DNA of 64,000 nucleotides from an uncultured Pseudomonadota bacterium (GCA_963749075.1 CAVVLJ010000022.1:148216-212215), one strand, 5' to 3'. Positions 36,042-51,271 are shown, numbered from the stretch's first letter. Numbers and translations are program-made. The notes: a model not told the origin generated them from the sequence alone.

Positions 36042-39000
36042 CTATTCGGCCGCCTGGCGGGAGGCGAGCGCACGCATCACGAGCGCTCGCAGTGCCGCGG
36101 GCTTGAGCGGCTTGTGGAGCACCGGCAGTGCCGCTGCCTGGGCGCGGCGCCTGATCGCTTGCGAACGGTCCGCGGTGATCAGGATCGCGGGGATCTCCGC
36201 GCGGTAGCGCTCGCGCAGCGCCGCGATGCAATCGATGCCGTCGCCGCCGCCGCCGAGGTGATAGTCGACGATCAGGAGATCGGGCGGCATCGTCCCCTCG
36301 GCGGCGAGCTCGAGAGCCGCCGCGAGACCGGCTGCGGGGCGCATGAGGTGCGACCAGCCCTCGAGCAGCGAAGCGAGCCCATCGAGCACGCTCGGCTCGT
36401 TGTCGACGCAGAGCACGCTGAGGCGCCCGCCGGCGCGCATCGGCAGCACCGCGTCGGCGGCAGTGCGCAGCCGCGTCACGCCGGCGCTGCCGCGCGGCAC
36501 GCTGAGCGTGAAGGCGGTGCCGCGGCCGGGCTCCGAGCGGAAGCTCACGGGATGGTCGAGAATGCGGCTGATGCGCTCGACGATCGAGAGGCCGAGGCCG
36601 AGCCCGTGCTCCGTGCCGGGGCCGCTCGCGAAGCGCTGGAATTCCTGGAAGACGAGCGGCTGCTTGTCGCGCGGGATGCCGCAGCCCGTGTCCCACACCT
36701 GGAGGCGGAGCGCCTGCGGCCCGCAGCGCGCGCCCATCAGCACCTTGCCGCGCGCGGTGTAGCGGATCGCATTCGAGAGCAGGTTCTGCAGCACGCGGTG
36801 GAGGAGCTGGCGGTCGCTCACCACCGCGTATCTTGTGGGCACGATGCGCAGATCGAGCCCCTTCTTCTCGGCAAGCGGGGCGAACTCGAGGCGCAGCGCC
36901 TCGAAGAGCTCGCTGAGCGCGAAGTCGTGGCGCTCGGGGAGCAAGCCGCCGGCGTCGAGCTTCGAGATGTCGAGTAGGGTGCCGAGCAGCTCCTCCACCG
37001 AGCCGAGCGAGGCATCGATCTTGCGCACGAGTTCGCCCTCGGCGCCGCTTGCGGCGCCGGGCCGGGCGGCGTGGCGCTCGACCAGGCTCGAGACGTAGAG
37101 CCGGGCGGCGTTGAGCGGCTGCAGGAGGTCGTGGCTCGCCGCCGCGAGAAAGCGGGTCTTGCCGAGATTGGCCTCTTCGGCCGCCGTCTTGGCGCCGTTG
37201 AGCTCGGCATTGAGCTGGGTGAGCTCGGCCGTGCGCTCGCGCACGCGTTGCTCGAGCGTCTCGTTCGCGGCGGCGAGCTGGGCGGCCACGCGGACGCGCT
37301 CGGTGATGTCGGAATAGGTGGTGACGCAGCCGCCGCCGGGCATCGTGCTGCGGCGCACCTCGAGCACCGTGCCGTTCGGCCGGCGGTACTCGAGCACCGG
37401 TTCGCCGTCGCCGAGGAAGAGCTCGAGCTGACGCGCCACCAGATCGTCGGGGTTGCCGGGGCCGTACTCGCCGCGCTCGGCATTGAAGCGCATGATCTCC
37501 GGCAGCGTCACGCCGACCGAGCCGAGTGCCGCCGGCAGCTCGAGCAGGTCGCGGAAGCGCCGGTTCCAGCACACCAGGCGGAGCTCGCGGTCGAACACGC
37601 TGATGCCCTGGCGCACGTTCTCGAGGGTCGATTGCAGGAGGTCGCGGTTGTATTGGATGGCCGCCGTGGCATCGTCGAGGAGCCGCATGGCGTCGTCGGC
37701 GCTGAGGTTCCGCCGCTCGAGCGTGAGCGCCATGACGAGGCGCGCCGAGGCGGCACCGATGGCGCTCGCAAGCAGCCGCTCGGTGTGGCGCACCAGGCCG
37801 AAGTCGGCCTCGGCGTCGGGCACCAGCGGCGTGCCGCGCTGGCTTGCAAAGTCCTCGAGCGAGCGCTGCGCGCGCTCGGGCCCGAGATAGCTCGCGGCCA
37901 CGGTTGCCATTTCCGAGACCCGCGCGGAGCCGTGCCACTGGCGGAAGACCATCTGGCCGCCGTTGCCCTCGGCGTCCACGAAGGCGTTCGCCTGGAGGCG
38001 CTCGATCACTCTGGGCACGCTCAAGAGCGAGACCAGCGCATAGGCCGCGACGTTGGCGAGCAGGCTCCAGAACACGCCGTGGGTCAAGGGATCGAAGCGC
38101 AGTCCGAAGAGCTGCTGGGGACGCAAGAGGCCGATGCCGAAGGGCCCGGCCTCGAGGAGACCGGGCGAAAAGGCGCCGGCCTGCGCGAGCGTCGGCACGA
38201 GGAGGCAGTACGCCCACATGAGAAAGCCCGCGAGGATGCCGGCGATCGCTCCCTTCTCCGTGGCGCCGCGCCAGATGAGGCCGCCCAAGAGGGCGGGTGC
38301 GAACTGCGCCACCGCGGCGAAGCTCAGGAGGCCGATCGAGGCCAGCGCATAGCGGTCCCCGAGCAGGCGGTAGGCGCAATAGGCGAGCAGCATGACGGCC
38401 ACGATCGCCACGCGGCGAACCTGGAGGATGACCTTGCCCATGTCCTCGCGGTCGGCGAGGCCGAGCCGCCGGCGGTGCAGCACGATGGGCATGACGAGGT
38501 CGTTGCTCACCATGTTGCTGACCGCGACGGACTCGACGATGACCATGGCTGCGGCGGCGGAGAGCCCGCCGATGAAGGCGAGGAGAGTGACGATGCGCTG
38601 GCCGCCCAGCATGGGCAGCTCCAGCACGAACATGTCGCCGTGGGAGACCGTATCGCCGAAGACGATCATGCCGGCCGCCGCGATCGGCACCACGAAGATG
38701 TTGATGGCCACGAGATAGAGCGGGAAGAGCCAGGCGGCCTTGCGCAGGTCGCGCTCGTCCACGTTCTCCACCACCGCCACGTGGAACTGGCGCGGCAGGC
38801 AGACCACCGCCGCCATGGCGAGCCCCGTCATGGTGACCCAGGTAGTGCCGTCGACGCCGCCGGAGAAGAGGCTCTCGAACGCGGGTACGGCGCGCGCGCG
38901 CGCCAGGAGATCGCCCCAGCCGCCGAACATGCCCCAGGTGACGAAGACGCCGACGGAGACGAAGGCGACCAGCTTGACGAGCGATTCGAAGGCGATGGCC

Positions 39001-39593
39001 AGCATCATGCCCTCATTGTGCTCGGTGGCCTTGATGTTGCGCGTGCCGAAGAGGATGGCGAAGAGCGCCAGCACGAGCGAGGCCGAGAGCGCCGTGTCGC
39101 TCCAGATCGCCGGGCCCGCGGCCGCGGCGGCTGCAGCGCCCGGCGGCTGGTGCAGCAGCACCGTGAAGCTGGTGGACACCGCCTTGAGCTGCAACGCGAT
39201 GTAGGGCAGCACGCCGATCACCGCGATCACCGTGACGAGGGCGGCAAGGAGCTGGCTCTTGCCGTAGCGCGCGGCGATGAGATCGGCGATCGAGGTGATG
39301 TTGTGGCTCTTGGAGACGCGCACGATGCGGCGCAAGAGCGGCAGGCCGAGCGAGAACATCAGGATCGGGCCGAGATAGATGGGGAGGAAATCGTAGCCCG
39401 TGCGCGAGGCGAGGCCGACGCTGCCGTAGAAGGTCCAGGAGGTGCAGTAGACCGCAAGCGAGAGCGCATAGACGACCGGCTTGGCGGCCGGCCGGCCGCG
39501 CCTCTTCGCCGCCCGGTCGCCGTAATAGGCGAGGGCGAAGAGCAGCCCGACATAGCCGAGCGCCAAGGCCAGAACGGCCCAACCCGGGATCAT
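36042..39593 (-). CDS. SLC5-STAC-PAS hybrid histidine kinase, CrbS/MxtR-like
   Basis: YALSLAVYCTSWTFYGSVG, LPRQFHV, AIGAASARLV, AASHDLLQPL, GLGLGLSIV, C-terminal receiver domain. Confidence 0.93.
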   Translation of the reverse strand: MIPGWAVLALALGYVGLLFALAYYGDRAAKRRGRPAAKPVVYALSLAVYCTSWTFYGSVGLASRTGYDFLPIYLGPILMFSLGLPLLRRIVRVSKSHNITSIADLIAARYGKSQLLAALVTVIAVIGVLPYIALQLKAVSTSFTVLLHQPPGAAAAAAAGPAIWSDTALSASLVLALFAILFGTRNIKATEHNEGMMLAIAFESLVKLVAFVSVGVFVTWGMFGGWGDLLARARAVPAFESLFSGGVDGTTWVTMTGLAMAAVVCLPRQFHVAVVENVDERDLRKAAWLFPLYLVAINIFVVPIAAAGMIVFGDTVSHGDMFVLELPMLGGQRIVTLLAFIGGLSAAAAMVIVESVAVSNMVSNDLVMPIVLHRRRLGLADREDMGKVILQVRRVAIVAVMLLAYCAYRLLGDRYALASIGLLSFAAVAQFAPALLGGLIWRGATEKGAIAGILAGFLMWAYCLLVPTLAQAGAFSPGLLEAGPFGIGLLRPQQLFGLRFDPLTHGVFWSLLANVAAYALVSLLSVPRVIERLQANAFVDAEGNGGQMVFRQWHGSARVSEMATVAASYLGPERAQRSLEDFASQRGTPLVPDAEADFGLVRHTERLLASAIGAASARLVMALTLERRNLSADDAMRLLDDATAAIQYNRDLLQSTLENVRQGISVFDRELRLVCWNRRFRDLLELPAALGSVGVTLPEIMRFNAERGEYGPGNPDDLVARQLELFLGDGEPVLEYRRPNGTVLEVRRSTMPGGGCVTTYSDITERVRVAAQLAAANETLEQRVRERTAELTQLNAELNGAKTAAEEANLGKTRFLAAASHDLLQPLNAARLYVSSLVERHAARPGAASGAEGELVRKIDASLGSVEELLGTLLDISKLDAGGLLPERHDFALSELFEALRLEFAPLAEKKGLDLRIVPTRYAVVSDRQLLHRVLQNLLSNAIRYTARGKVLMGARCGPQALRLQVWDTGCGIPRDKQPLVFQEFQRFASGPGTEHGLGLGLSIVERISRILDHPVSFRSEPGRGTAFTLSVPRGSAGVTRLRTAADAVLPMRAGGRLSVLCVDNEPSVLDGLASLLEGWSHLMRPAAGLAAALELAAEGTMPPDLLIVDYHLGGGGDGIDCIAALRERYRAEIPAILITADRSQAIRRRAQAAALPVLHKPLKPAALRALVMRALASRQAAE

Positions 39594-39892
39594 GGCCTCC
39601 CCACGTCGAAGCGCCTTCTTGTTGCCTTATGATACGCAGGGGCGAGGCCGCGGGGTAGTGCGCTTTGTGCCGTGAGGCATTCTCTTATCTCCGGGAAAAT
39701 CGCCCTCCGATATGGCTTACGGTTGAAAGAGTCTCTTTTGAGCTCTGACTAGGAACATTATTGGTCAGAAAATCCGCCGGCACTGCTGAGCTTAGGTTCG
39801 CGGACGGTAGCTCAATCCTATAGGGTAGTTCTTATATTATCATCTAAATTAAATAAGATATTTCTTATTGCAATCTTAATGAATTATAGGAT

Positions 39893-40357
39893 ATGCCTTA
39901 TGGCATGAACAATGCCATTCGCCACCTCGATAACCGTTTTGCTGCCTTGCGCCCTTTGGCCGCGAGCCCGAATCCCCCTAAGGGCTGGCTCCGCGCCATC
40001 AGGAACGCGCTTGGCATGACCACGGCGCAGTTTGCGCGCCGGCTCGGCGTGTCCCAGCCGCGCATCATCGAACTCGAACAGTCCGAAGCCAGCGGGACCG
40101 TAACGCTGCACACGCTTCAACGCGCGGCCGAGGCTCTTGGCTGCCGCCTTGTCTATGCGCTGGTGCCCGAACGCCCGCTCGCAGAGATCGTCGGCGATCG
40201 CGCCAAACTTGTAGCCGAACGTCAATCTGCGACCGTCGAGCACACCATGCGTCTCGAAGATCAAGCCGTGCAGGGCAAGAACGCTCGCGCGGGACTGCGC
40301 CGCCAATTGATCGACGAGCTCATGCGTCGTCCTGCACGTCTATGGGATGAGAAATGA
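39893..40357 (+). CDS. Mobile mystery protein A (XRE HTH)
   Basis: PPKGWLRAIRNALGMT, TLQRAAEALGCRLVY, HTMRLEDQ, LWDE. Confidence 0.9.
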   Translation: MPYGMNNAIRHLDNRFAALRPLAASPNPPKGWLRAIRNALGMTTAQFARRLGVSQPRIIELEQSEASGTVTLHTLQRAAEALGCRLVYALVPERPLAEIVGDRAKLVAERQSATVEHTMRLEDQAVQGKNARAGLRRQLIDELMRRPARLWDEK

Positions 40358-40938
40358 CGGGGCCGTCCGACGCCGACAATGATGCGACGCCGCTTACGGC
40401 AGAGGAACGCGACGGGCTCATCCCGACGCATGTCACTATACGGAGCGAACTCAACGAACTCGAACAGCAGAATATCTCGGAAGCCGACCGCTGGGCCTTT
40501 GCCCGTAAGCGCAACGTTCTCGACGAGCCTTTCCTGCGCGGCCTCCATCGAAGGATGTTCAATCGCGTGTGGCGATGGGCGGGAAAATATCGAACTACGG
40601 AACGTAATCTCGGCATCGAGAGCTATCGCATCCAGACGGAAATTCGGCAAATCGTCGACGATGCCCGCTACTGGATCGACCATAAATCCTATCCGCCCGA
40701 CGAGCTCGCCGTGCGCTTCCACCATCGTCTCGTGTTCGTGCACCCATTTCCCAATGGAAACGGCCGCTGGTCGCGGCTGGTGGCGGATTTGCTGGTCGTG
40801 CGACAGGGCGGCTCCCGATTCACCTGGGGCCGCGCCAATCTCCAAACGGCAAACGAATTTCGGCGAGCGTATATTGACGCCTTGCATGCGGCTGACAATC
40901 ACGATATTGCGCCGCTTGTTGGTTTTGCAAGGTCGTAA
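40354..40938 (+). CDS. Mobile mystery protein B (Fic domain)
   Basis: ATPL...GLIP, ELNELEQQNI, WAGKYR, HPFPNGNGRWSRL, C-terminal FARS. Confidence 0.92.
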   Translation: MTGPSDADNDATPLTAEERDGLIPTHVTIRSELNELEQQNISEADRWAFARKRNVLDEPFLRGLHRRMFNRVWRWAGKYRTTERNLGIESYRIQTEIRQIVDDARYWIDHKSYPPDELAVRFHHRLVFVHPFPNGNGRWSRLVADLLVVRQGGSRFTWGRANLQTANEFRRAYIDALHAADNHDIAPLVGFARS

Positions 40939-40987
40939 GCGGGGCACGGATGAGTTTGAGCCGACCACCCTTGGAGAGAGGCCTCAT

Positions 40988-41140
40988 ATGACATTCCCAT
41001 CGCCAGCAGAACAGGATCGGCGTTTCCTAAAAGATTTTGCTGAAATAAACTCTCAGCTCATTGAATGGGGATGGTTCCTCCCCCCATGGATCACCGGCGG
41101 AGAGTTGGAGAAGGTTAAGACTTATCTCAGCGGCTTAAAG
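40988..41140 (+). pseudogene. N-terminal fragment of an unknown gene running into the element arm
   Basis: MTFPSPAEQDRRFLKDFAEINSQLIEWGWFLPPWITGGE... then reads through non-coding arm sequence homologous to 49380-49590. Confidence 0.45.
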
Positions 41141-41354
41141 TCGCAAGGCGACACAATGCAGACACCCTTTGAGCGAATGTTGACCATGCAAGATTGGCCG
41201 AATCGGATGCAAAATCAATGGGAAAGCGTGACTTGCATCGAATTCCCCCTAGAATATCAATGGATTAAAGGTAGTATTCGGTCTTCATCAAATCTGCACA
41301 ATTCCTACACTGCAATAAAATTACGAGAATCAAGAATGATGTGGGAAAAATAAG

Positions 41355-41380
41355 ATGGCATCTTATCAATACATCTACGT
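41355..41380 (+). repeat. att site: duplicate of the first 26 nt of ettA
   Basis: ATGGCATCTTATCAATACATCTACGT vs ATGGCGTCTTACCAATACATCTACGT (49589-49614): 24/26 identical, both differences synonymous, 14-bp identical core. Confidence 0.92.
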
Positions 41381-41403
41381 GATACTTAGATTAAATTAAC
41401 TAC

Positions 41404-41431
41404 TTGACAAACAATCATATTTCTATATAAA
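41404..41431 (+). promoter_or_regulatory. Sigma70-type promoter of the integrase
   Basis: TTGACA-N16-TATAAA about 90 bp upstream of the int ATG. Confidence 0.6.
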
Positions 41432-41436
41432 GTCTC

Positions 41437-41504
41437 CTGCACAACACCTACACAGGTACGGCAGATCAACCACTTACGCGCGCGATCTGCACAGAACCTG
41501 CACA
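41437..41504 (+). repeat. Paired CTRCACA arm-type repeats (11-bp period)
   Basis: Pairs at 41437/41448 and 41487/41498; similar pairs at 41294/41305 and 49532/49543. Confidence 0.8.
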
Positions 41505-41520
41505 GAATGGACGCCGTTTC

Positions 41521-42783
41521 ATGGCCTTTTTGATCGACACGCAGGAGCTCAAGACCGGCCTCATCATCTTCCGCCGCACGGATGTGGAGCACCGGAATTG
41601 GTATTGCCGGATCAAGCTGCCGAAGGAGGACCGCTACAAGACCCTCTCCCTCAAAACCGCCGACATCAACGTGGCGCGCGACAAGGCGTTCGAGCAGGAC
41701 GCCGAGCTGCGCTTCCGAATTAAGCATGAAATTCCGATATTTAACAAAACCTTCGGCCAGGTGGCCCAGGAGTTCTCGGCCTTCCAGAAGGAGCGCTCCG
41801 AGGCCGGCCAGATCACCTTCCACCGCTGGCGGGTGATGCACTCCCATATCAAGACGCAGCTCGACCCCTATGTCGGCAGCGTCCAAATCACCCAGGTCGG
41901 GGAGGACCGGTGGAAGGCCTTCCCCATCTGGCGGCAGAAGAACGGCAAAGGCCGCTCGGGCGGACGCGTCAGCGACGGCACCATCCGTGACGAGATGGCG
42001 ACCTTCCGCTCGATCATGGGCTTTGCCGCCGGCAAGAACTACATCCGCAGCACTCAGGTCTTCCGCGGCCGGCTTCCCCTCGGGAAGGCCCGCCGCGAGG
42101 AATTCACCCCTCCCGAATATCGCAAACTCCACAGCTTCGCGCGTAGCTGGATCAAGGAGGCACGTAACGACTTGGGCACATGGTATCGGACCATGGCCTA
42201 TAATTTCGTACTCATCATGACCAACACCGGCATGCGGCCCTCGGAAGCGCGGAACCTGCGTTGGCGCGACGTAGCCACGCAGACTGACAAGCTGGGCCGC
42301 CAATTCGTTCGCCTGAATGTGCGGGGAAAGGGGAAATTCCGCACCCTCGTTGCGGCCAGCAACGTCGCCAACTATCTCGACCGCATCCGTCAAATCAGCA
42401 AACACACCGAACCAGATGACTTCGTCTTCGTGACTGAAGACGGCAAAATGGCACGCACGCTCTACTATTCGCTCGTCGAGCGGCTGCTTATCGAATCGAA
42501 ATTGCAAACCAGCTCATCCGGAAGTCGGCGCAGCACTTATTGCTTCCGGCATACCTATGCGACCTTCCGTCTCACGGAAGGCGTGGACGTGTACTTCCTC
42601 GCCAAACAGATGGGCACGTCCGTGAAGATGATCGAGGATCACTACGGACATGTGACGCCCGTCAAGAATGCGGATCGCATTCTCCAGGGCCTTGCCCGGA
42701 TGGGAGCCGATCGCCGCCGCGCCGCAGGAGGCGCGCTGATAGCGCGCCTATCGGTCCCCTGCTCTACAGTCGCGGGCCTGTAG
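41521..42783 (+). CDS. Tyrosine recombinase/integrase; the true end is probably 42739 (1-bp insertion near 42690)
   Basis: TGMRPSEARNLRW, YCFRHTYAT, MGTSVKMIEDHYGH; the alternate frame ends QGLPGWEPIAAAPQEAR*. Confidence 0.93.
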   Translation: MAFLIDTQELKTGLIIFRRTDVEHRNWYCRIKLPKEDRYKTLSLKTADINVARDKAFEQDAELRFRIKHEIPIFNKTFGQVAQEFSAFQKERSEAGQITFHRWRVMHSHIKTQLDPYVGSVQITQVGEDRWKAFPIWRQKNGKGRSGGRVSDGTIRDEMATFRSIMGFAAGKNYIRSTQVFRGRLPLGKARREEFTPPEYRKLHSFARSWIKEARNDLGTWYRTMAYNFVLIMTNTGMRPSEARNLRWRDVATQTDKLGRQFVRLNVRGKGKFRTLVAASNVANYLDRIRQISKHTEPDDFVFVTEDGKMARTLYYSLVERLLIESKLQTSSSGSRRSTYCFRHTYATFRLTEGVDVYFLAKQMGTSVKMIEDHYGHVTPVKNADRILQGLARMGADRRRAAGGALIARLSVPCSTVAGL

Positions 42784-43121
42784 GCGAATAGCGATCGAAC
42801 TAACTTTTGCCTGGGTTGCCGATGACACGTCAACATTCGATGTATAGTCGGCTCTCCCAATCCACGTTGTAAGCGCGATTGGTGAACATACTCTTTTCGA
42901 AGCCATGAGTAACTTGCATAATTAAACTCTTTCCGACAGCGGCCACAAGCGTTATAAATTGTATGACGGGTCTGTTGCGCCCTTGGTAGGTGCGGATGGC
43001 AGAACTACAACGCACACCGTACAGCGGCCTTCGCGTGCTCCCGACGATTATATCAACCGACGGGATCACAGCGACGATATTGCAAGGACGATAGCCTCAG
43101 TGCATTGAAACGGAGTGTTCC

Positions 43122-43745
43122 ATGCCACAATACGGCGCATTGCGCATCCATTCCCAAGGGGGCATCCAAGTCACCGAGGCGCGTGACCTACTCGCCCAAA
43201 TAGATGACGCCTACAATGCCATCTATGCGTACGACACATTTCTCGATTCCGCAGATGCATCCAGGCGACGTAGGCTCCCCATTGAATTCATCGAGCTTGG
43301 GCTATTTGCAAGGCCGTGGGGTTTCGGCATTGAACAAATCCGCGACTGGCCGCCCAAGCCAGAGGCGCTGCAAACGCTTGTACCGTCGCGCGATCGGTTA
43401 ATTTTGAAATCTACAAAACTTGAATCTCCCGGCTTTTGGGAGGTTCTCGGTAGCCTAAACCCTCTCGAAGTCATACGAAAGTACATAGGCGACGCCCACG
43501 AAAGGCGAAAGGATCGTGAATATAGGGAAGCGAGCGAAAGGCGACGACTTGAGCTCGAAAATCGGTTGTTACATACCGAGGTGCTCAACAAGGAAGCCGA
43601 TTTTCTAAAGCGGCTCGGCGCGACGGAACAAGATTTCGCAGCTCTGCGCAATGCCCTACTTTACGACCCCCTTCGCAAGTTGGAGCTATTGCAAGATCGG
43701 GGCATCATCGACGGAAGTGATGATATTGAGCCTACCAAGCGCTAA
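43122..43745 (+). CDS. Hypothetical protein (207 aa) with a coiled-coil segment
   Basis: GGAG RBS; charged helix ERRKDREYREASERRRLELENRLL. Confidence 0.75.
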   Translation: MPQYGALRIHSQGGIQVTEARDLLAQIDDAYNAIYAYDTFLDSADASRRRRLPIEFIELGLFARPWGFGIEQIRDWPPKPEALQTLVPSRDRLILKSTKLESPGFWEVLGSLNPLEVIRKYIGDAHERRKDREYREASERRRLELENRLLHTEVLNKEADFLKRLGATEQDFAALRNALLYDPLRKLELLQDRGIIDGSDDIEPTKR

Positions 43746-43882
43746 CCAATGAGCGAAAGCGGCTCGAACTTGGTTATGATCTTCTTTAAATCGATGCGGA
43801 TGGGCGATAGGTCGCCGAGCGTTGCCACCAATCGGCAACAACTAGGCAGGCGAGCCGCGCCACGCTGTGGCCTGCAACTCGA

Positions 43883-46800
43883 CTAAGCGGTCTTCTTAAC
43901 TGTCCCATCGTCAGCGATCCGTGCTTCAAGGGCTCGCGCCGACGCAACGCCTGACCGAACTAACACATCGAGACATTTTCCAAGTTCCTCCCTGACCTGG
44001 GCAAGGATCGTCGATGCTTCGGCATCGTTGCTCAGCGCCCGATCAATCCATACGCAAATACGGTGGCCAATGTGATGCTCGTTCCAGAAATTGGCGCCCA
44101 CGCCGTGCGCTTTGCACCACGCCGAGACCGCTTGCACAAAATCGGGCAAAAGTGCCGCACATGGATACGATTCTATTAACGTCAAAAAGACGACCGCCAC
44201 GTATCCCGACATTGGAGCCGACGTTACCAGTGGAGTGAGGATCGGCATGCATTCAAGCAGGCCGCTCCAGCGCTCCGGAATATGCGGGTGCCCTTGATTG
44301 GCCCATCTCGACGGTTGGTAAAACATTGCGTTGAGGGCATCGCCGAGATGTGTTTCGGCCATGAACGATGCTCGGTCGTTTAGTCTCTCCGCCATTCTCC
44401 CGCGCCACAGCCGGCTAGCGAATAGCGCGCGTGTACCGCGCGGATTGTCGGGCTGTTTGGTGTCGGTCGCGAGCGTCGCGCGATCGAATCCACGCAGGAA
44501 ACTGCCAACGGCATCATGGAAAGCTTCGTCGTGAAGCCGCGTCATTGGGTCCAGAAATAATATTCGCGACCGTTCAAACGGCAGAGCCACGCACAAAATT
44601 CCAAGAAAATCGAAATAACACATATTCCAGTGATCCGGTCGGTTCTCTCTCTCCCCCTCATCGTCACCGGGCGGTCCATTGTTCGCCTCAATCGTCCAAC
44701 CCATCAGATGATCCGCGAGGGCTACGACCCACTCGGCGGCGTTGCCGACAGCAAGACGGATGAGATGGCCAATCCAGATGCCGAGCGCGTGCTCGTCCAC
44801 ATATTCCTCCGGCGGCCGCTGCGGTGCTGGGCTTCGCTCATCTGCGCGCGCGTCGTGGCCAATTCGGATGCCGCGACGACGCCGAGAGTGCCACGGAGCC
44901 AATGCGGGCCATGCCGGTTCCGACCCAATGCCACCGAGCCATCTGCTCTCATCGCGTATCGCCACAGCACGGCGATCCAAATAGGACTCCAGGTTTGCCG
45001 CATCTTCTGCCGGTTCGAGCGTGCGCCGAGGATGGACAGCGGTCTCGAGGATGATCCGTGTTAGCGAACGCGCAAGCCGCGCATCCAGGCGATCAAATTC
45101 GTTCAGATGGATTCCAATGGCATTCAGGACAGCATGATCTTGCCGTCCGGCCAGCGCGAGCAGAGCATCCCTAGTCATGGAATCTTTGTTTCTGCGATAA
45201 AGCCCTGCATAGCCGACGGCAGCGATTGCCGCGACATTCGAATAAATTTGGCTGGCAGAGCGCGTGACAATGTCATCGGTCTCTTCGCTGACCGCAAGAT
45301 TGAGGATCGGCTTAGCCCACGCCTCTATGTCAGCGCGATCCGATCCCTCGTAATCCCGAGCCGCCAAAGCGGCGGCCATTACCACTGCGCGCGCGCGCCA
45401 TTGATGATCAAAGTCATCATGCTCCTCGCCGTCGGCGGACTTTGTTTTGTCCGCGTTGATCTGCGATTTTGCCCAGGAGATAGCTTGCGCCACGATTTCC
45501 GCCGTGGATTTCCCCGGGTCCGTCAATGCCGTTTGGATGCTCTGGCGCACATGAAGGTCTGCGACATTTGCATTCGAGCTCTCTCGCGCAGCATTGACCA
45601 GTGCTTCTTCCTCGGCTGCGAGCTGGTATTGATGCCCTTCGAATTCCTGACCATCGGCACGCCGGAAAGTTTTCCGCGGCCACTGCTTTACATCCGTCAT
45701 CCGCAATGCCCGTGCCGCTGTTGCGCTCAGACCGTAGATCGGGTCATTGTCATTAGGATAGGCATTCTGTGCGATGCGCTCGCGCGCGCGCTCGAGCGCT
45801 TCACGTAGCTTCGCATGAATGTCGGCAGGTCCCCTCAACGTGAACTGTCCAATCATATCTATCAGTTGTTGGCTACGAGACGGCCTCTCCAAAAGATCCG
45901 TGGTTTTGATGGGCCAGTGTGGGGGTTCTCGCTCCGGCATGAAAAACCTCCCCATGCCGGACACGTCCTGGGTGAAGCGCATATGATCGAAGTGCAGCAA
46001 TTCTGGCGTCGCTAACATCGGCCACGCCAAGTCCTTTGCTGTCTCCCAGTGCGACAGCACGAGATCAACGCCAACGCATACGAACGCCGCGCTTGAGCCT
46101 GACGGTCCCAACACCTCATGCAACACGTCGCCAAAGGAACGGCCCGACTCGATTTGACGGTGCGCCCATGCCTCAAGCGCCATCAGCGCCGAAGCGGCGA
46201 CAAGCGCCCCGGTACCTCCGCGCGCCCACTGATAAATCGCAAAGCTTCCTTCGAACGATTTGGAGCCATCCGGGAACGGAATTGTCATGACAGGGAATGT
46301 CAGTCCCTCTGCCATGCATCTTTCCCGATTCCAATTTGTCGCATACTCGACGACCCCTCGAACGAGCCGTAATCCGTCGCTTGCTGAATTATTGAGAAGT
46401 TCGAAGAATGGGCCCTGTCCCGGCGAACTGGGAATAAAATCGGTATCGAAAACCCCGAAGGGGTCCATGCGATCGTACCTTTGCCGGTAGGGGTCGTTTT
46501 CACGCTCCTTAGGAATGAGCACTGCCAGTGCGAAATCAGCCAGCGCGGCAGGAGCCGCCTTTGCCGTAGAACCATATAACCGCAAGATATTCCGTGCTTC
46601 ACGATCCGTGTCGGGATCGGTCTTCCGGAGATAACTTGCGGCCAGTTCCGGATTCAAATGACAAAAAGCAAGGAAGGTCATACGAACGTCTTCGTAGACA
46701 CCGCGCGGATTGTCAAAGTTCAGGTCCAATCCTTTCGCCTTGCGCTTATCCCGAATTGCGATCGGATGCATCGCTTCCTCGATGCGCGTCAGCCAGTCGT

Positions 46801-49125
46801 AGAGCTTCAGGACGATCAATGCGTTGATTTCCGGCACAAGGGCCTGAGTCGCCATCAGCCACAATTGGAACAGTTTTACGATGTCCGGAATGACCGCGCT
46901 TGGCAGGCGGTCCAACTTGCTCAATACCCAAAGCACCAACGGCATCCAGCCGGGCCCCGTTGGCATCACCATCGTTGCGGAATCTCCTCGGCAATGGGGA
47001 TTGCTGGTTCTGAACGCGCTATGATTTTCCCAAGCGGCTCTGACTCCACCGCGATCATAAGTCGGATGATGTCTTTCAGTCGCCGCCCTTTGTCCGCAAC
47101 AAGTGCCCCTTCGACGCGATCGAACAATTCCAGTGCGTTTTCGGAGTGGGGCAGTGCCAACAAAATTGGCCGGCGCCAACTGCCGTGACAGCCGTCGCGT
47201 TCAAAATTTGCCAACAGGGAAAGCCAACGAGCACCCGTCGTATCGCCCTGAAGCGCAAGCCGCGCCGCGACTTCGATCCCACGCGAAAGGGCACCGGGCA
47301 ATGGCCGGTCCGTCAGAAGAACCGTCAGGAGTTCGGGCTTCTCAACAAGCAGAAATCCAACCGTCCAGTCGCGCAGAGTATCGTGCCAGAACGCAACCGT
47401 AGCGCCGGCGCGGTCTTCACGCAGGCTCTCAACCCGCAGGAGTTCCGCTATTGTCTTCGAATCCAGCTCATCGGCGTTAAATGCGGCAAGACCTGGCCGT
47501 TGGATCGCCCGCTCGCCGAGGGTGCGGAGAAGTTTCAAGCGCTCCCACTTTCCCTCTTCGAAACGCCCGCCACCAAATCGCCACCACGCATTGGCAAGGT
47601 CAATCTCATTCACGAGCGTTGGCTCCGACTGACCGTCCGGCGCCGCCGGATTAATCATTCGCGACAAATGAAAGAGATTGCGCGCCATCGCTCGAGCTGG
47701 ATGCGTGCTGCTAAGCAAAGCCGACAGCGCTGGATTACCAGCCCGCAGCACACCCGCTTCGGCATCCGTGATTTCTCCGACGCGAACGCTTTGCCAGGGC
47801 ATCTCCCGCAAATCATCGGGCAGGTTCCCGCGCCACTCCTTATTCTCGGATCGCACGGTGAACACGGATCGCCACCCGGGGCACTCTTCCACGCCGCGCA
47901 GGAGATCGCGCAGCGTGACCCACGCCTCTGCGTCGTCAATCTGGTCGATGTTATCTATGAAAAGGGTAGCGCCGCCGCCGCACCCCAATTCGTTGAACAG
48001 CTCGTTGCGGCTAACGGTACAACCAATGACATGTGCCATCTTGAGCCATCCGCCGCCGACGATGCGGCCTGGTGTGAGCACAAGAAGGGTGCCTTCGTCC
48101 TGGAGGCGCATCGCAATTGACTTGAGAACGGCAGATTTACCGACACCCGATGGCCCGACGATCTGCACTGTGCTCGCTTGCTCAAGAGCTTGATAGCCTT
48201 CTTCGACCACTTCCGCGCGCGAAAGCCGCACCCCGCCTACATTGTCCTTGATGTCAGCGAGCGCATGGCTCGCCGATTCTCTCAGCCTTGCGTGTACGGC
48301 ACGAAGGTCTGCTCGGTTCCCAAATCGGAATCCGTATTTTTCTGAAAGATCGCGAGCCAGCGTTGGCCGATCGATTTCACCACCCACTGCATCGCGCGCC
48401 AGCGCCTCATCAATTATTATCGACCACAGCTCCGCTGCACGAGCGACTTGATCCGGCGCAAGGACCGTATGCGCCCGCTCACGAGCTCGGTGATCATAGT
48501 CTGACGCAGGTGCTTCAAAATCGAAGACGAGAATTTGAAAGCGCCGCAGCAGCCGCCAGACCGTGTCCTCATCGGTCGGCGCCCCACAAGCCGCAAGGTG
48601 ATGACAAAAGGCATGAACGAAGTCGCCCATGCCCTTTGAAGAAAACCCTGGTCGGGCCATGTGCGCGGCGAATGATGCGCCGCTGGTGAGCTGGCGCGCC
48701 CAGAGGAGGACTTCTTGGCAATGTCTCTCGATGCGCGTTGATGTCCGCGCGATCGCAACCGCCAACTCGTACCGCGCCGTGTCAAATTGGGGTTTCTGCG
48801 AGGATGCGTATAGGCGTCGAATGACCTCGCCGAACTGAGAATTCGAAGGCACAAAATCGATTGTCCGTTTGGCTTGGATGTCCAGAAAGGCTTCCGAGCC
48901 GTCGGCATTGATGGCATTGACTGTCACATCGTCGAGGGGGCTGCCGTGAGCCGCCTGCTGAAACCGGACGGATTGCACGGACGCACCTGGAAGGCCGCGC
49001 GGCTCGCCATGTGCGAGTAGCGACAGCAGGTAAAAAGCGCCAACCTTCCCCTCAAACCGGGGCCCGGCCGGCCCGGTCGATGCCGGAGGGGTTGCAGCTT
49101 TCAGGTCGGGGCGGTTATCGGCCAC
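43883..49125 (-). CDS. Large PD-(D/E)xK nuclease - STAND-type ATPase (~1747 aa), Avs-like; 1-bp frameshift near 46978
   Basis: N-terminal GPRFEGKVG...PLDDV...DIQAK; Walker A GPSGVGKS; Walker B LFIDNID; long helical C-terminus; adding one base joins EEIP-ATMVMPTGPGW. Confidence 0.8.
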
Positions 49126-49588
49126 GAGCGATTATGTTCTTGATACGTTCGGATCGCAAGAAGTATCGCAATCGCAGGACATACAGACCCCAAATTCGGA
49201 CCATTCTCGATTGCCAGTCTGTCGAGAAAGATCCGACAAAACGCCGGTAACCCTTGCGGGCTCGTGGGCAATCTGTCCAGCTAGTAGATCAAGACCAGCC
49301 GTCAGCGATTTGCGGTGAACTCCAAATCATGCTACGGCGTCGGCTTACGGGGGCGATGCCCTTCTTCCCTGCAAGACAATGTGAGGCAACGCGTGCAGAC
49401 GCCCTTTTGATCGAAGGTTGACCATGCAAAATTCGCCGATCTCAGCGCGAAAATCGTTCGCCAGCAGCCTTTTCGTTGATTTTCAACATGCATATCAATG
49501 GGTTATAAGGAATCCTCGGGTTGTGGCCAACCTACACAACTCCTGCACAGTTATAAAATGATAATAATTATCTAGGAATATCAAATAA

Positions 49589-51271
49589 ATGGCGTCTTAC
49601 CAATACATCTACGTCATGAACGGTCTCACGAAGGCCTTTGCCGGCGGCCGGCAGGTGCTCAAGGACATTCGCCTGTCGTTCTTTCCGGGCGCCAAGATCG
49701 GCGTGCTCGGTCCGAACGGCGCGGGGAAGTCGACGCTGCTCCGCATCATGGCGGGGCTGGACGGCGATTTCACCGGCGAGGCCTGGGCGGCCGAGGGCGT
49801 CAAGGCGGGCCTGCTCTCGCAGGAGCCCCAGCTCGATCCCACCAAGGACGTGATGGGCAACGTGCTCGAGGGGGTTGCCGAGAAGAAGGCGCTCCTCGAG
49901 CGCTTCGAGGCGGTGAGCGCGCGCTTTGCCGAGCCGCTCGAGGAGGCGGAGATGAACGCCCTCATCGCCGAGCAGGCCGAGCTCCAGGAGAAGATCGACG
50001 CCGTCGGCGGCTGGGAGCTCGAGCGCCAGGTCGAGATCGCCATGGATGCGCTCCGCTGCCCGCCCGGCGACGCGGCGATCGCCGCGCTCTCGGGCGGCGA
50101 GCGCCGCCGGGTGGCGCTCTGCCGGCTCCTCCTTGCCCATCCCGATCTCTTGCTCCTCGACGAGCCGACGAACCACCTGGACGCGGAGTTGGTGGCCTGG
50201 CTCGAGCGCTTCCTCTCCGAATACGACGGCACGGTGGTGGCGGTGACCCACGACCGCTATTTCCTCGACAACATCGCGGGCTGGATCCTCGAGCTCGACC
50301 GCGGCCGCGGCATTCCCTTCAAGGGCAACTACTCCTCCTGGCTCGAGCAGAAATCGAAGCGCCTGGAGCAGGAGGAGAAGGAGGAGCATGGGCGCCAGCG
50401 CGAGCTCGCCCGCGAGCTCGAGTGGATACGCCAGTCGCCCCGCGCGCGCCAGGCCAAGAGCAAGGCGCGCGTGAGCTCCTACGAGACGCTGCTCGCCGAG
50501 AGCCGCGAGCGCGCCCCCGATCAGGCCCAGATCGTCATCCCGGCCGGCCCGCGCCTGGGCGATCTCGTCGTCCAGGCCGAGCATCTCAGCAAGGCCTATG
50601 GCGACCGCCTCCTCATCGAGGATCTGAGCTTCCGCGTGCCTCCCGGCGCCATCGTCGGCATCATCGGGCCCAATGGTGCGGGCAAGACGACGCTCTTCCG
50701 CATGATCGTAGGCGCCGAGCAGCCCGACGCCGGGACGCTCCGCTTAGGCGACACGGTCAAGCTCGGCTACGTCGATCAGTCGCGCGACGCGCTCCGCGCG
50801 GAGAAGACCGTGTGGGAGGAGATCTCCGGCGGCCTCGACCAGCTCGAGCTCGGCAAGCACCGCATGGCGAGCCGCGCCTACGTCGCCGCCTTCAACTTCA
50901 AAGGCGCGGATCAGCAGAAGAAGGTGGGCCAGCTCTCGGGCGGCGAGCGCAACCGCGTGCATCTCGCCAAGATGCTCAAGTCGGGCGCCAACCTGCTGCT
51001 CCTCGACGAGCCGAGCAACGACCTCGACGTCGACACCTTGAGGGCGCTCGAGGACGCGCTCCTCGCCTTTGCCGGCTGCGTCATGGTGATCAGCCACGAC
51101 CGCTGGTTCCTCGACCGCATCGCGACGCACATCGTCGCCTTCGAGGGCGACAGCGCGGTCGTGTGGTTCGAGGGCAATTACTCGGCCTACGAGGCCGACC
51201 GGCGGCGCCGCCTCGGCGAGGCGGCGGAGCAGCCCCACCGCATCAAGTACAAGCCGCTGGTGCGTGCCTGA
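49589..51271 (+). CDS. ettA: Energy-dependent translational throttle ABC-F protein
   Basis: [32 protein letters not shown], two ABC domains, ARQAKSKAR linker, PHRIKYKPL. Confidence 0.96.

Follow-up and report, generated by a model that had tools for sequence, protein, structure and literature searches.

A 64,000-nucleotide (nt) stretch of DNA from an uncultured Pseudomonadota bacterium (GCA_963749075.1 CAVVLJ010000022.1:148216-212215), referred to here as the window, was shown to contain an element of 8.2 kilobases (kb), designated island B, which is bounded by two copies of the start of ettA. Analysis of its ends, its integrase, related elements and an island-free junction indicates that island B is very probably a site-specific integrative island which targets the ettA start and replaces it, and that the island is real and probably still mobile. 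The features of island B and its target gene are listed below, with positions counted from the first nucleotide of the window, open reading frames (ORFs) given with their length in amino acids (aa), and attL and attR denoting the left and right attachment sites.

41381-49614: island B, very probably a site-specific integrative island, 8.2 kb between the ettA-start copies
41355..41380, plus strand: attL, orphan ettA start, ATG plus 8 codons (M-A-S-Y-Q-Y-I-Y-V)
41381..41520, plus strand: left arm, with a promoter-like site and two paired 7-mers
41521..42783, plus strand: int, tyrosine integrase, 420 aa (PF00589)
43122..43745, plus strand: 207-aa protein without family, a conserved stand-alone family
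43883..49125, minus strand: Avs-like, putatively antiviral gene of the signal transduction ATPases with numerous domains (STAND) type, ~1,747 aa, with a predicted PD-(D/E)xK-type nuclease, a P-loop NTPase and a ~1,000-aa sensor region
49403..49588, plus strand: right arm, with a paired 7-mer (49532-49549), an AT-rich segment and, ~10 nt ahead of the ATG, an AGGAA ribosome-binding site
49589..49614, plus strand: attR, island-supplied ettA start fused to the chromosomal ettA body
49589..51271, plus strand: ettA, energy-dependent translational throttle, ABC-F, intact, 560 aa

The initial annotation, which was made from the sequence of the window, had described an element of about 8.2 kb bounded by copies of the first 26 nt of ettA, and these boundaries were borne out. 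The two 26-nt copies, which start 8,234 nt apart, are imperfect direct repeats (identical at 24 of 26 positions) and share an exact 14-nt core, CAATACATCTACGT, at 41367-41380 and 49601-49614, which encodes Q-Y-I-Y-V of the ettA start. With up to three mismatches allowed, the 26-mer was found at just two sites in the window, and two or more matches were obtained in none of 100 shuffled sequences. The similarity of the two ends was shown to reach ~190 nt upstream of the ATG (41165-41354 versus 49403-49588), and this shared stretch contains the paired 7-mer CTGCACA-n4-CTACAC. The GC content drops from ~0.70 in the flanks to 0.43-0.63 between ~39.5 and ~50 kb. As in a 5'-end-replacing island, direct repeats of the target start flank the element and int lies beside one of its ends. 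The target gene was found to be full length, its product matching the EttA profiles TIGR03719 (967 bits, cut-off 807) and NF008775 (960 bits, cut-off 599), and the right arm of the island provides its ribosome-binding site, ATG and first codons. The gene is therefore whole but read from island DNA, as the island-borne start is fused to the ettA body at attR.

Between the two copies lie int, the 207-aa ORF and two overlapping minus-strand ORFs that form one gene. This agrees with the content proposed initially (an integrase, a 207-aa unknown and a giant nuclease-ATPase), the giant gene having been recognised correctly despite a frameshift. The accompanying claim that transfer, replication and capsid genes are absent stood for the four large island ORFs, among which Pfam, NCBIfam and PADLOC searches detected no relaxase, replication or capsid family; it is less complete for the small ORFs, not all of which were scanned. 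The int gene starts 141 nt past attL, and its product matches PF00589 over residues 217-379 (E 9.5e-15, 55.2 bits versus a cut-off of 27.1). Residues R239, K270/K272, R343, H344 and Y375 were at least 97% conserved across 74 relatives, and the two usual His positions appear as Y340 and T366 (canonical mapping by eye). The integrase is at most 31% identical to any of 72,556 plasmid records and at most 27% identical to any of 50,697 phage records. The left arm carries a TTGACA-type promoter-like site (41404-41433) and paired 7-mers of the pattern CTGCACA-n4-CTRCACA at 41437-41454 and 41487-41504, both candidates for arm-type binding. Neither an Rfam nor a tRNA scan found a match at the locus.

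Taken together, these features suggest a mechanism in which the element's own attachment site (attP) would consist of the right and left arms with an ettA-like start between them. The integrase would recombine this site with the opening 26 nt of ettA, in the 14-nt core or next to it. The ettA start present before integration would be stranded at attL as an orphan stub, and at attR the ettA body would receive a ribosome-binding site, an ATG and eight or nine initial codons from the island, presumably along with an island-borne promoter. The paired 7-mers in both arms are probably arm-type integrase sites. Island B would have entered an ettA start that had already been replaced by an earlier element, designated remnant A, which now has no integrase.

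A precise presence/absence polymorphism at the core was shown by a contig of 2,247 nt from soil run X1, which covers 39426-41366 and then continues with 49601-49906, skipping 8,234 nt (41367-49600). The joint (41366 to 49601), at which 14 letters fit both sides, falls inside the 14-nt core, with the letters of the left copy on the left and those of the right copy on the right, and only three other letters differ in the whole contig. This contig is the vacant target site (attB) expected for island B, with remnant A joined to ettA through the core; excision as such is only inferred. The island-free contig has a depth of 9.4 and the listed island-cargo contigs have depths of ~3.9-6.9, depth not being equivalent to the share of cells. 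Short 'skips' in runs X2-X4, with sides of less than 30 letters, were rejected as ABC genes of other organisms; these runs hold small parts only.

Empty sites were also identified in close relatives of the same genus (G021 and G024), where ettA is preceded by a GC-rich native upstream region and begins with MAA, its ATG lying ~165-215 nt from the start of a divergent kinase gene. The start of ettA in the window is unlike this native MAA start. At occupied or remnant sites (G000, G023 and G022), the gene was found to follow an AT-rich arm with a dyad and AGGAA, and to begin with MAS or with a TTG start.

To place the integrase among its relatives, 185,579 species genomes were scanned, yielding 93 relatives in genome contigs, 80 of which (43-95% identity) were kept, and a stub of the pattern M-x-x-Y/H-Q/E-Y-I/V-Y-V was sought upstream of int. 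An ettA-start stub was found ~150-170 nt upstream of int in 21 of the 80 loci (20 by pattern and L006 by eye). The non-stub loci comprise 24 with a GC-rich hairpin ending in a GGGATGA-like sequence at the same place and 32 with other sequence, and the upstream sequence was too short in three of the 80. In a quick maximum-likelihood tree of 74 rows, with support from the Shimodaira-Hasegawa-like approximate likelihood ratio test (SH-aLRT), all 20 stub rows, including that of the window, were contained in one 33-row group with 99% support. Two nested subclades and four single loci inside this group have other or only core-like upstream sequence. The proposal of an ettA-specific integrase clade was thus supported both by the stub counts and by the tree.

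Both ends were present on one contig in five elements (the window, 8.2 kb; L005, 9.0 kb; L019, 9.95 kb; G006, 14.5 kb; G011, 26.9 kb), each with imperfect ettA-start repeats (31 nt exact in L019), and a bona fide ettA is carried by 15 of 20 genomes checked. An independent sample of 400 evenly drawn alphaproteobacterial genomes was analysed at an integrase threshold of E <= 1e-80. The integrase was detected in three genomes (G023, 95% identity; G412, 61%; G148, 54%), and a composite right-end pattern was likewise detected in three (G022, G023 and G412), with no match in the reversed control. The right-end pattern is present in both genomes whose integrase reaches 61% identity or more (G023 and G412), and G022 represents an integrase-less remnant. 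Elements at ettA are rare, and the tie between this integrase clade and the ettA start is supported.

The arms were shown to follow a common layout. A TTGAC-type box follows the core among stub-bearing loci, and in 19 of 22 stub loci int is preceded by paired 7-mers at ~-85, at ~-33 or, in most cases, at both positions. The right end has one dyad, ~40-57 nt ahead of the ettA ATG, and then an AGGAA ribosome-binding site, a layout of dyad, ribosome-binding site and ATG that is also present at ettA in G022, G023 and G412. The 7-mer occurs in the variants CTGCACA, CTGGACA and GTACACA, with the same variant in both arms of one element; for example, L002 and the contig with its ettA side both have CTGGACA, and the window has CTGCACA/CTACACA. 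Such arm-matched 7-mers would fit arm-type protein binding. In runs X1 and X2, contigs ~94% identical to int (41547-42905) were observed at a summed depth above that of the island cargo; they show that other members of the integrase clade live in the same soils as X1 and X2.

Relatives of int with 43-64% identity account for the hairpin-type loci (L026-L038, L043-L046, L051, L053, L056, L061, L067, L069 and L070). The upstream sequence in these loci ends in a GGGATGA- or GGGAGA-like sequence ~150 nt upstream of int, which suggests that sister lineages may target repeated hairpins or terminators. Direct repeats downstream in the hairpin-type relatives were limited to weak 14-15-nt candidates (L046 and L057).

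The initial annotation bounded the island correctly but missed the upstream similarity of the two ends and the foreign DNA to the left. Foreign DNA of low GC content was shown to begin at ~39650, not at 41355, and remnant A precedes island B, with the following features on the left side.

36042-39593, minus strand: hybrid histidine kinase, 1,183 aa (PAS_7, HisKA, HATPase_c, receiver), divergent from ettA
39594..39650, no strand assigned: kept piece of the native ettA upstream region, adjoining the start of the divergent kinase gene
39651..41354, plus strand: remnant A, integrase-less earlier island, with a helix-turn-helix (HTH)/Fic pair plus a right-arm-like end
39893-40357, plus strand: mobile mystery protein A, HTH (TIGR02612, 5e-50, 169 bits versus a cut-off of 123)
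40354-40938, plus strand: mobile mystery protein B, Fic (TIGR02613, 1e-79, 267 bits versus a cut-off of 124)
41165-41354, plus strand: right-arm-like end of remnant A, aligning with the right arm of island B (49403-49588), with a paired 7-mer at 41294-41310

Alignment with the empty sites of G021 and G024 revealed conservation up to ~39640-39650, where it breaks, so that ~55 nt of the native region are kept; the window lacks the remainder of the native promoter as well as the native ettA stub. The adjacent HTH and Fic genes, which overlap by 4 nt and for which PADLOC also matched the candidate system PDC-S04, are the sole cargo of remnant A. A third ettA stub was sought at the left edge of the foreign DNA and not found. 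The onset of foreign DNA at ~39650, the right-arm-like end before the stub and the lack of a third stub are the grounds on which the locus is read, from its sequence, as a two-unit accretion of remnant A followed by the complete island B. A comparable remnant was found beside the kinase gene in G022, with a 496-aa Fic protein (L110:9361-10851), a TTG-start ettA and the dyad CTGCAGA-n4-CTGCAGA. The Fic proteins in this remnant and in remnant A differ; Fic genes recur in the family and may stabilise relics. The island separates two divergently transcribed genes, the kinase gene and ettA.

In streptococci, accretion of cis-mobilisable elements (CIMEs) and integrative and conjugative elements (ICEs) brings together integrase-less relics and complete elements at one attachment site. 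The arrangement in the window is similar in that an integrase-less unit keeping its att-proximal arm and a complete element share one target, arranged in tandem. It differs in that remnant A keeps the right arm only and, its left attachment site being lost, is probably not mobilisable in cis.

Several observations weigh against this reading of island B. Integrase and ettA lie on separate contigs in 13 of the 15 ettA-bearing genomes, most right ends being unconfirmed, and in seven of the 22 stub loci, among them the window, the stub is itself preceded by an arm dyad, as in an attP-like or tandem junction. Among the stub-bearing loci L008, L010, L020 (with L170-L172), L006 and L015, which are mostly Acidobacteriota metagenome-assembled genomes, an intact attP-like junction was observed, in the order arm dyad, ettA-like start, arm dyads and int. 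In the Acidobacteriota loci L008, L010 and L020, no ettA, second stub or dyad was found within 30 kb downstream, and the corresponding genomes have no TIGR03719 match above the cut-off. L015 has its cargo upstream of the junction (SIR2- and HerA-like ORFs, identified by eye), and DNA of host-like GC content follows int. These loci show that the stub belongs to the element's own attP, so that a stub indicates adaptation to ettA but does not by itself prove insertion there. The check for ettA adjacency proposed in the initial annotation thus had a mixed outcome, with five elements bounded at both ends and Acidobacteriota loci without a nearby ettA. Within the window, a search for an excisionase among the small ORFs near int yielded nothing but alternate-frame echoes of int itself, a promoter scan detected no right-arm site above threshold (with site counts not above those of shuffled sequences), and the left edge of remnant A (~39650) is not an attachment site. 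A circular attP junction was not present in the run contigs, a weak negative given that only contigs were searched. The island-free form could predate integration rather than follow excision, and the mobility evidence derives from contigs of X1, which may be the window's own source sample. Finally, an antiviral role of the cargo is deduced from homology and fold, with 37 bits against a cut-off of 1,500 for Avs4.

Some of these points would suit a fixed fossil with relic repeats, the island-free contig being the product of a RecA-type or replication-slippage deletion between the short repeats, or an assembly artefact, and not the outcome of integrase action. Neither an attP junction nor an excisionase was recognised, remnant A and the G022 remnant both show in-place decay, and the evidence comes from contigs only. 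However, the X1 joint lies exactly in the 14-nt core with the letters of the two copies sided as expected for attB, and an exact repeat of 14 nt offers little length for homologous recombination and is below the size of the 31-letter words indexing the contigs. The integrase ORF is, moreover, intact with its conserved residues kept, and related islands with other cargo occupy the same core in other species, so a fossil is considered improbable. The region from 39.65 to 49.6 kb could conversely be one composite element that moves as a unit, with the internal stub as an attP-like relic, as the low GC content from ~39.6 to 49.9 kb, the arm-like sequence on both sides of the internal stub and the similar attP-like junctions in six other loci might suggest. 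Yet the X1 contig retains 39426-41366 and is without only 41367-49600, showing the right unit to be separable from the left, the left edge at ~39650 has neither stub nor core, and G022 carries a comparable remnant alone; a composite element is accordingly regarded as highly unlikely.

A degenerate prophage, or a phage satellite, attaching at ettA is likewise regarded as highly unlikely. Prophages often carry site-specific integrases that act at the 5' ends of genes, as a study of dusA illustrates (PMC4482086), and the main text of a preprint places an island labelled '12.DUF756|ettA' among islands excised after mitomycin C, primarily functional and defective prophages (bioRxiv 10.64898/2026.09.08.750204). 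Against this, no capsid, terminase, portal or replication family was detected in the window island or in the scanned cargo of five others, relaxases were found in related islands instead, and the integrase is remote from all phage records compared (at most 27% identity).

Site-specific integration at the ettA start therefore remains the favoured explanation of island B. A more far-reaching proposal, which is put forward as a tentative and rather doubtful one, is that the clade represents a naturally retargeting integrase lineage which, having the ettA start in its attP, takes over ettA expression and forms a self-renewing hotspot. The attP would carry the ettA start, a ribosome-binding site and probably a promoter, and would thereby capture the expression of an ATP/ADP-sensing translation throttle; with 7-mers located ~40-57 nt ahead of the ATG, ettA could be tuned by integrase bound there. 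GC-rich hairpins would have become the targets of sister and nested lineages, and recognition would follow a modular code, as the co-variation of the arm 7-mers with the element suggests. Successive insertions into the replaced start would give rise to tandem arrays and to relics stabilised by Fic proteins, and ettA in soil bacteria would thereby serve as a small hotspot of cargo and defence genes that renews itself.

The giant gene of island B appears as two overlapping minus-strand ORFs (46966-49125, 719 aa; 43883-47179, 1,098 aa). These were taken as one gene because at least 120 homologues (mostly 1,740-1,750 aa, the best among the matches listed being 74% identical) are single proteins, because alignment with the homologues places a frame change within 46981-46990, and because the sole difference in an X1 contig matching 46210-47240 (1,031 nt) is one extra base behind 46981. 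More distant contigs of X3 and X4 have one extra base behind 46980. Frame arithmetic from the ORF coordinates indicates that one extra base at ~46981 joins both ORFs into ~1,747 codons, and the break near 46981 probably reflects faulty assembly or a minor variant of the genome from which the window comes.

Structure prediction for the 719-aa N-terminal part gave a predicted local distance difference test (pLDDT) value of 84, and the best solved Foldseek matches (residues 1-719) were Avs4 with a phage portal (8dgf, 3.5e-11) and Avs3 (8dgc), followed by nucleotide-binding leucine-rich repeat (NLR) proteins, with Cap4 also matched. Identity to the solved Avs proteins is ~12-14% over the Foldseek alignments. 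The nuclease-like motif (D65, D66, Q84 and K86) and the Walker residues (G327, G329 and K330 of Walker A, and D391) were invariant in 40 sequences. A sequence search of PDB chains with the nuclease-like N-terminus yielded no matches at E <= 1. PADLOC matched the gene to PDC-M54A (1e-11) and to Avs4 (2.5e-8), a further Avs4 match was obtained at 5e-10, and the C-terminal half aligned with Avs4 positions 597-938. Against the whole-protein family Avs4 (NF041815), with its cut-off of 1,500 bits, the two halves reached 15.6 and 37.3 bits.

The protein has the Avs-type architecture of an N-terminal effector, a STAND NTPase and a C-terminal sensor within one polypeptide. It shares with Avs3/Avs4 and PDC-M54A the predicted N-terminal nuclease-like domain, STAND P-loop NTPase and long C-terminal region; unlike Avs3/Avs4, it falls far under the Avs4 family cut-off, has the low identity given above and is known here from sequence and model. 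As the NCBIfam Avs4 score lies far under the cut-off, the gene is named Avs-like and not Avs4. Judged by homology and modelled fold, the gene probably works as a one-gene system whose product senses phage proteins and cuts DNA.

The 207-aa protein belongs to a family of 143 homologues of ~205 aa from soil and other metagenomes, none of which is named or has a Pfam domain. Residues S102, P103, G104, W106, H126, R129, D131 and N147 are invariant, and the resulting SPGxW...H..R.D...N block sits in a low-confidence part of the AlphaFold model (moderate, pLDDT 72), which had no PDB fold match at E <= 0.001. No match was found in Pfam, NCBIfam or PADLOC, only 'hypothetical' clusters were returned by the Atlas, and the protein was found in none of 400 other alphaproteobacterial genomes. 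The gene was beside int or the Avs-like gene in none of 55 metagenome loci, many of them short, and no conserved neighbour was present among 24 loci compared. A role as partner of the Avs-like protein was dropped; the family is a real one, occurring as a lone gene in changing contexts.

The cargo of the window island is not shared with other loci, and the related islands were shown to carry the following.

L005: histidine kinase, SpoIIE-type phosphatase and protoglobin-STAS
L019: RTX-repeat protein and MobA/MobL relaxase
L106: Fic protein (517 aa, beside int), ArdC, relaxase with NikA-like protein, TetR and MacAB-like ABC system
L107/L108: two relaxases, SIR2 (3e-180) with HerA (5e-159), and a small second integrase
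G023 (sister-species island): PDC-M54A, HNH, YaaC-like protein, relaxase, methylase-like 970-aa protein and ShosA (3e-99)

The G023 island, whose integrase is 95% identical to that of the window, is split over two contigs, and its PDC-M54A consists of ORFs of 781 and 873 aa (5e-191 and 9e-180) that are 23% identical to the window's gene. In the sister island these two ORFs overlap by 4 nt (L002:11528-16491) and are split at approximately profile position 775 of 1,657, near the break point of the window's gene. Relaxases are present in three of four other complete islands (L019, L106 and L107) and in the G023 island. The window island has no relaxase family in its four large ORFs, which on that count sets it apart from the integrative mobilizable elements, and is the smallest, complete relatives measuring 9-27 kb. 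Three of six islands examined are defence-rich. On the predicted gene content, the wider family looks like one of integrative, often mobilizable elements with mixed cargo.

The description 'minimal defence-island family' in the initial annotation did not survive this comparison, as the relatives are 9-27 kb in size and combine relaxases, signalling, RTX and efflux genes with defence genes. Its notion of an ettA hotspot with variable cargo was partly sustained: the cargo does differ among elements, but the elements occur in only three of 400 alphaproteobacterial genomes. Similarly, cataloguing the cargo for antiphage systems did uncover SIR2-HerA, Shosta and PDC-M54A, in cargo that is not restricted to defence.

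Insertion at gene 5' ends is known from several systems. The 5' end of prfC is used by conjugative elements of the SXT/R391 type, and islands mobilised by IncC occupy dusA, yicC and trmE; both are gammaproteobacterial, with known helpers, excisionases and origins of transfer (oriT). Similarities to the island described here include insertion at a translation-related gene whose 5' end is restored, and the existence of mobilisable islands without a transfer apparatus of their own. Conversely, no helper, excisionase or oriT was identified here, no search aimed at an oriT having been made, and the hosts are mainly soil Alphaproteobacteria.

The dusA islands and prophages have a tyrosine integrase and a short 5'-end site, and the 5' end of the gene is replaced by the element (Farrugia et al. 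2015, PMC4482086). These islands and the present one resemble each other in the replaced 5' end of a housekeeping gene, in imperfect direct repeats acting as attL and attR, and in variable cargo. They differ in the target, as the present element sits at ettA, which by target separates it from the dusA-associated integrases, and in the paired 7-mer arms, the frequent tandem or remnant junctions and the sister lineages with other targets seen here. A precedent by name is '12.DUF756|ettA', a ~12-kb island from a model soil consortium that is reported to excise after mitomycin C (bioRxiv 10.64898/2026.09.08.750204). It is named after ettA, as flanking or target gene; the main text of the preprint gives only the name, so that the comparison with the present clade is by name alone. 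Full-text literature searches for ettA/yjjK/chvD as an integration target returned nothing beyond this label, the supplements of the preprint not being covered, and matches to 'chvD' proved to be a virus database acronym, not ettA. The initial, tentative remark that ettA was not known to have been described as a target was therefore nearly right, save for this one island label in a 2026 preprint.

The island is a new, target-specific case of the known strategy of 5'-end replacement. The elements are rare and the principle is known, and the surprise to a specialist is accordingly moderate. The variable cargo of the family encompasses SIR2-HerA, Shosta, two divergent PDC-M54A/Avs-like genes and neighbouring proteins without a family match. 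Lineages with different targets provide material for studying changes in integrase specificity and for integrase prospecting, and the system is open to direct testing through its defined clade and core site, its arm repeats and the sites found naturally empty, occupied or reduced to a remnant. With these islands, ettA, which encodes a conserved ABC-F translation factor, joins the short list of housekeeping genes (dusA, prfC and others) whose 5' ends are replaced by islands.

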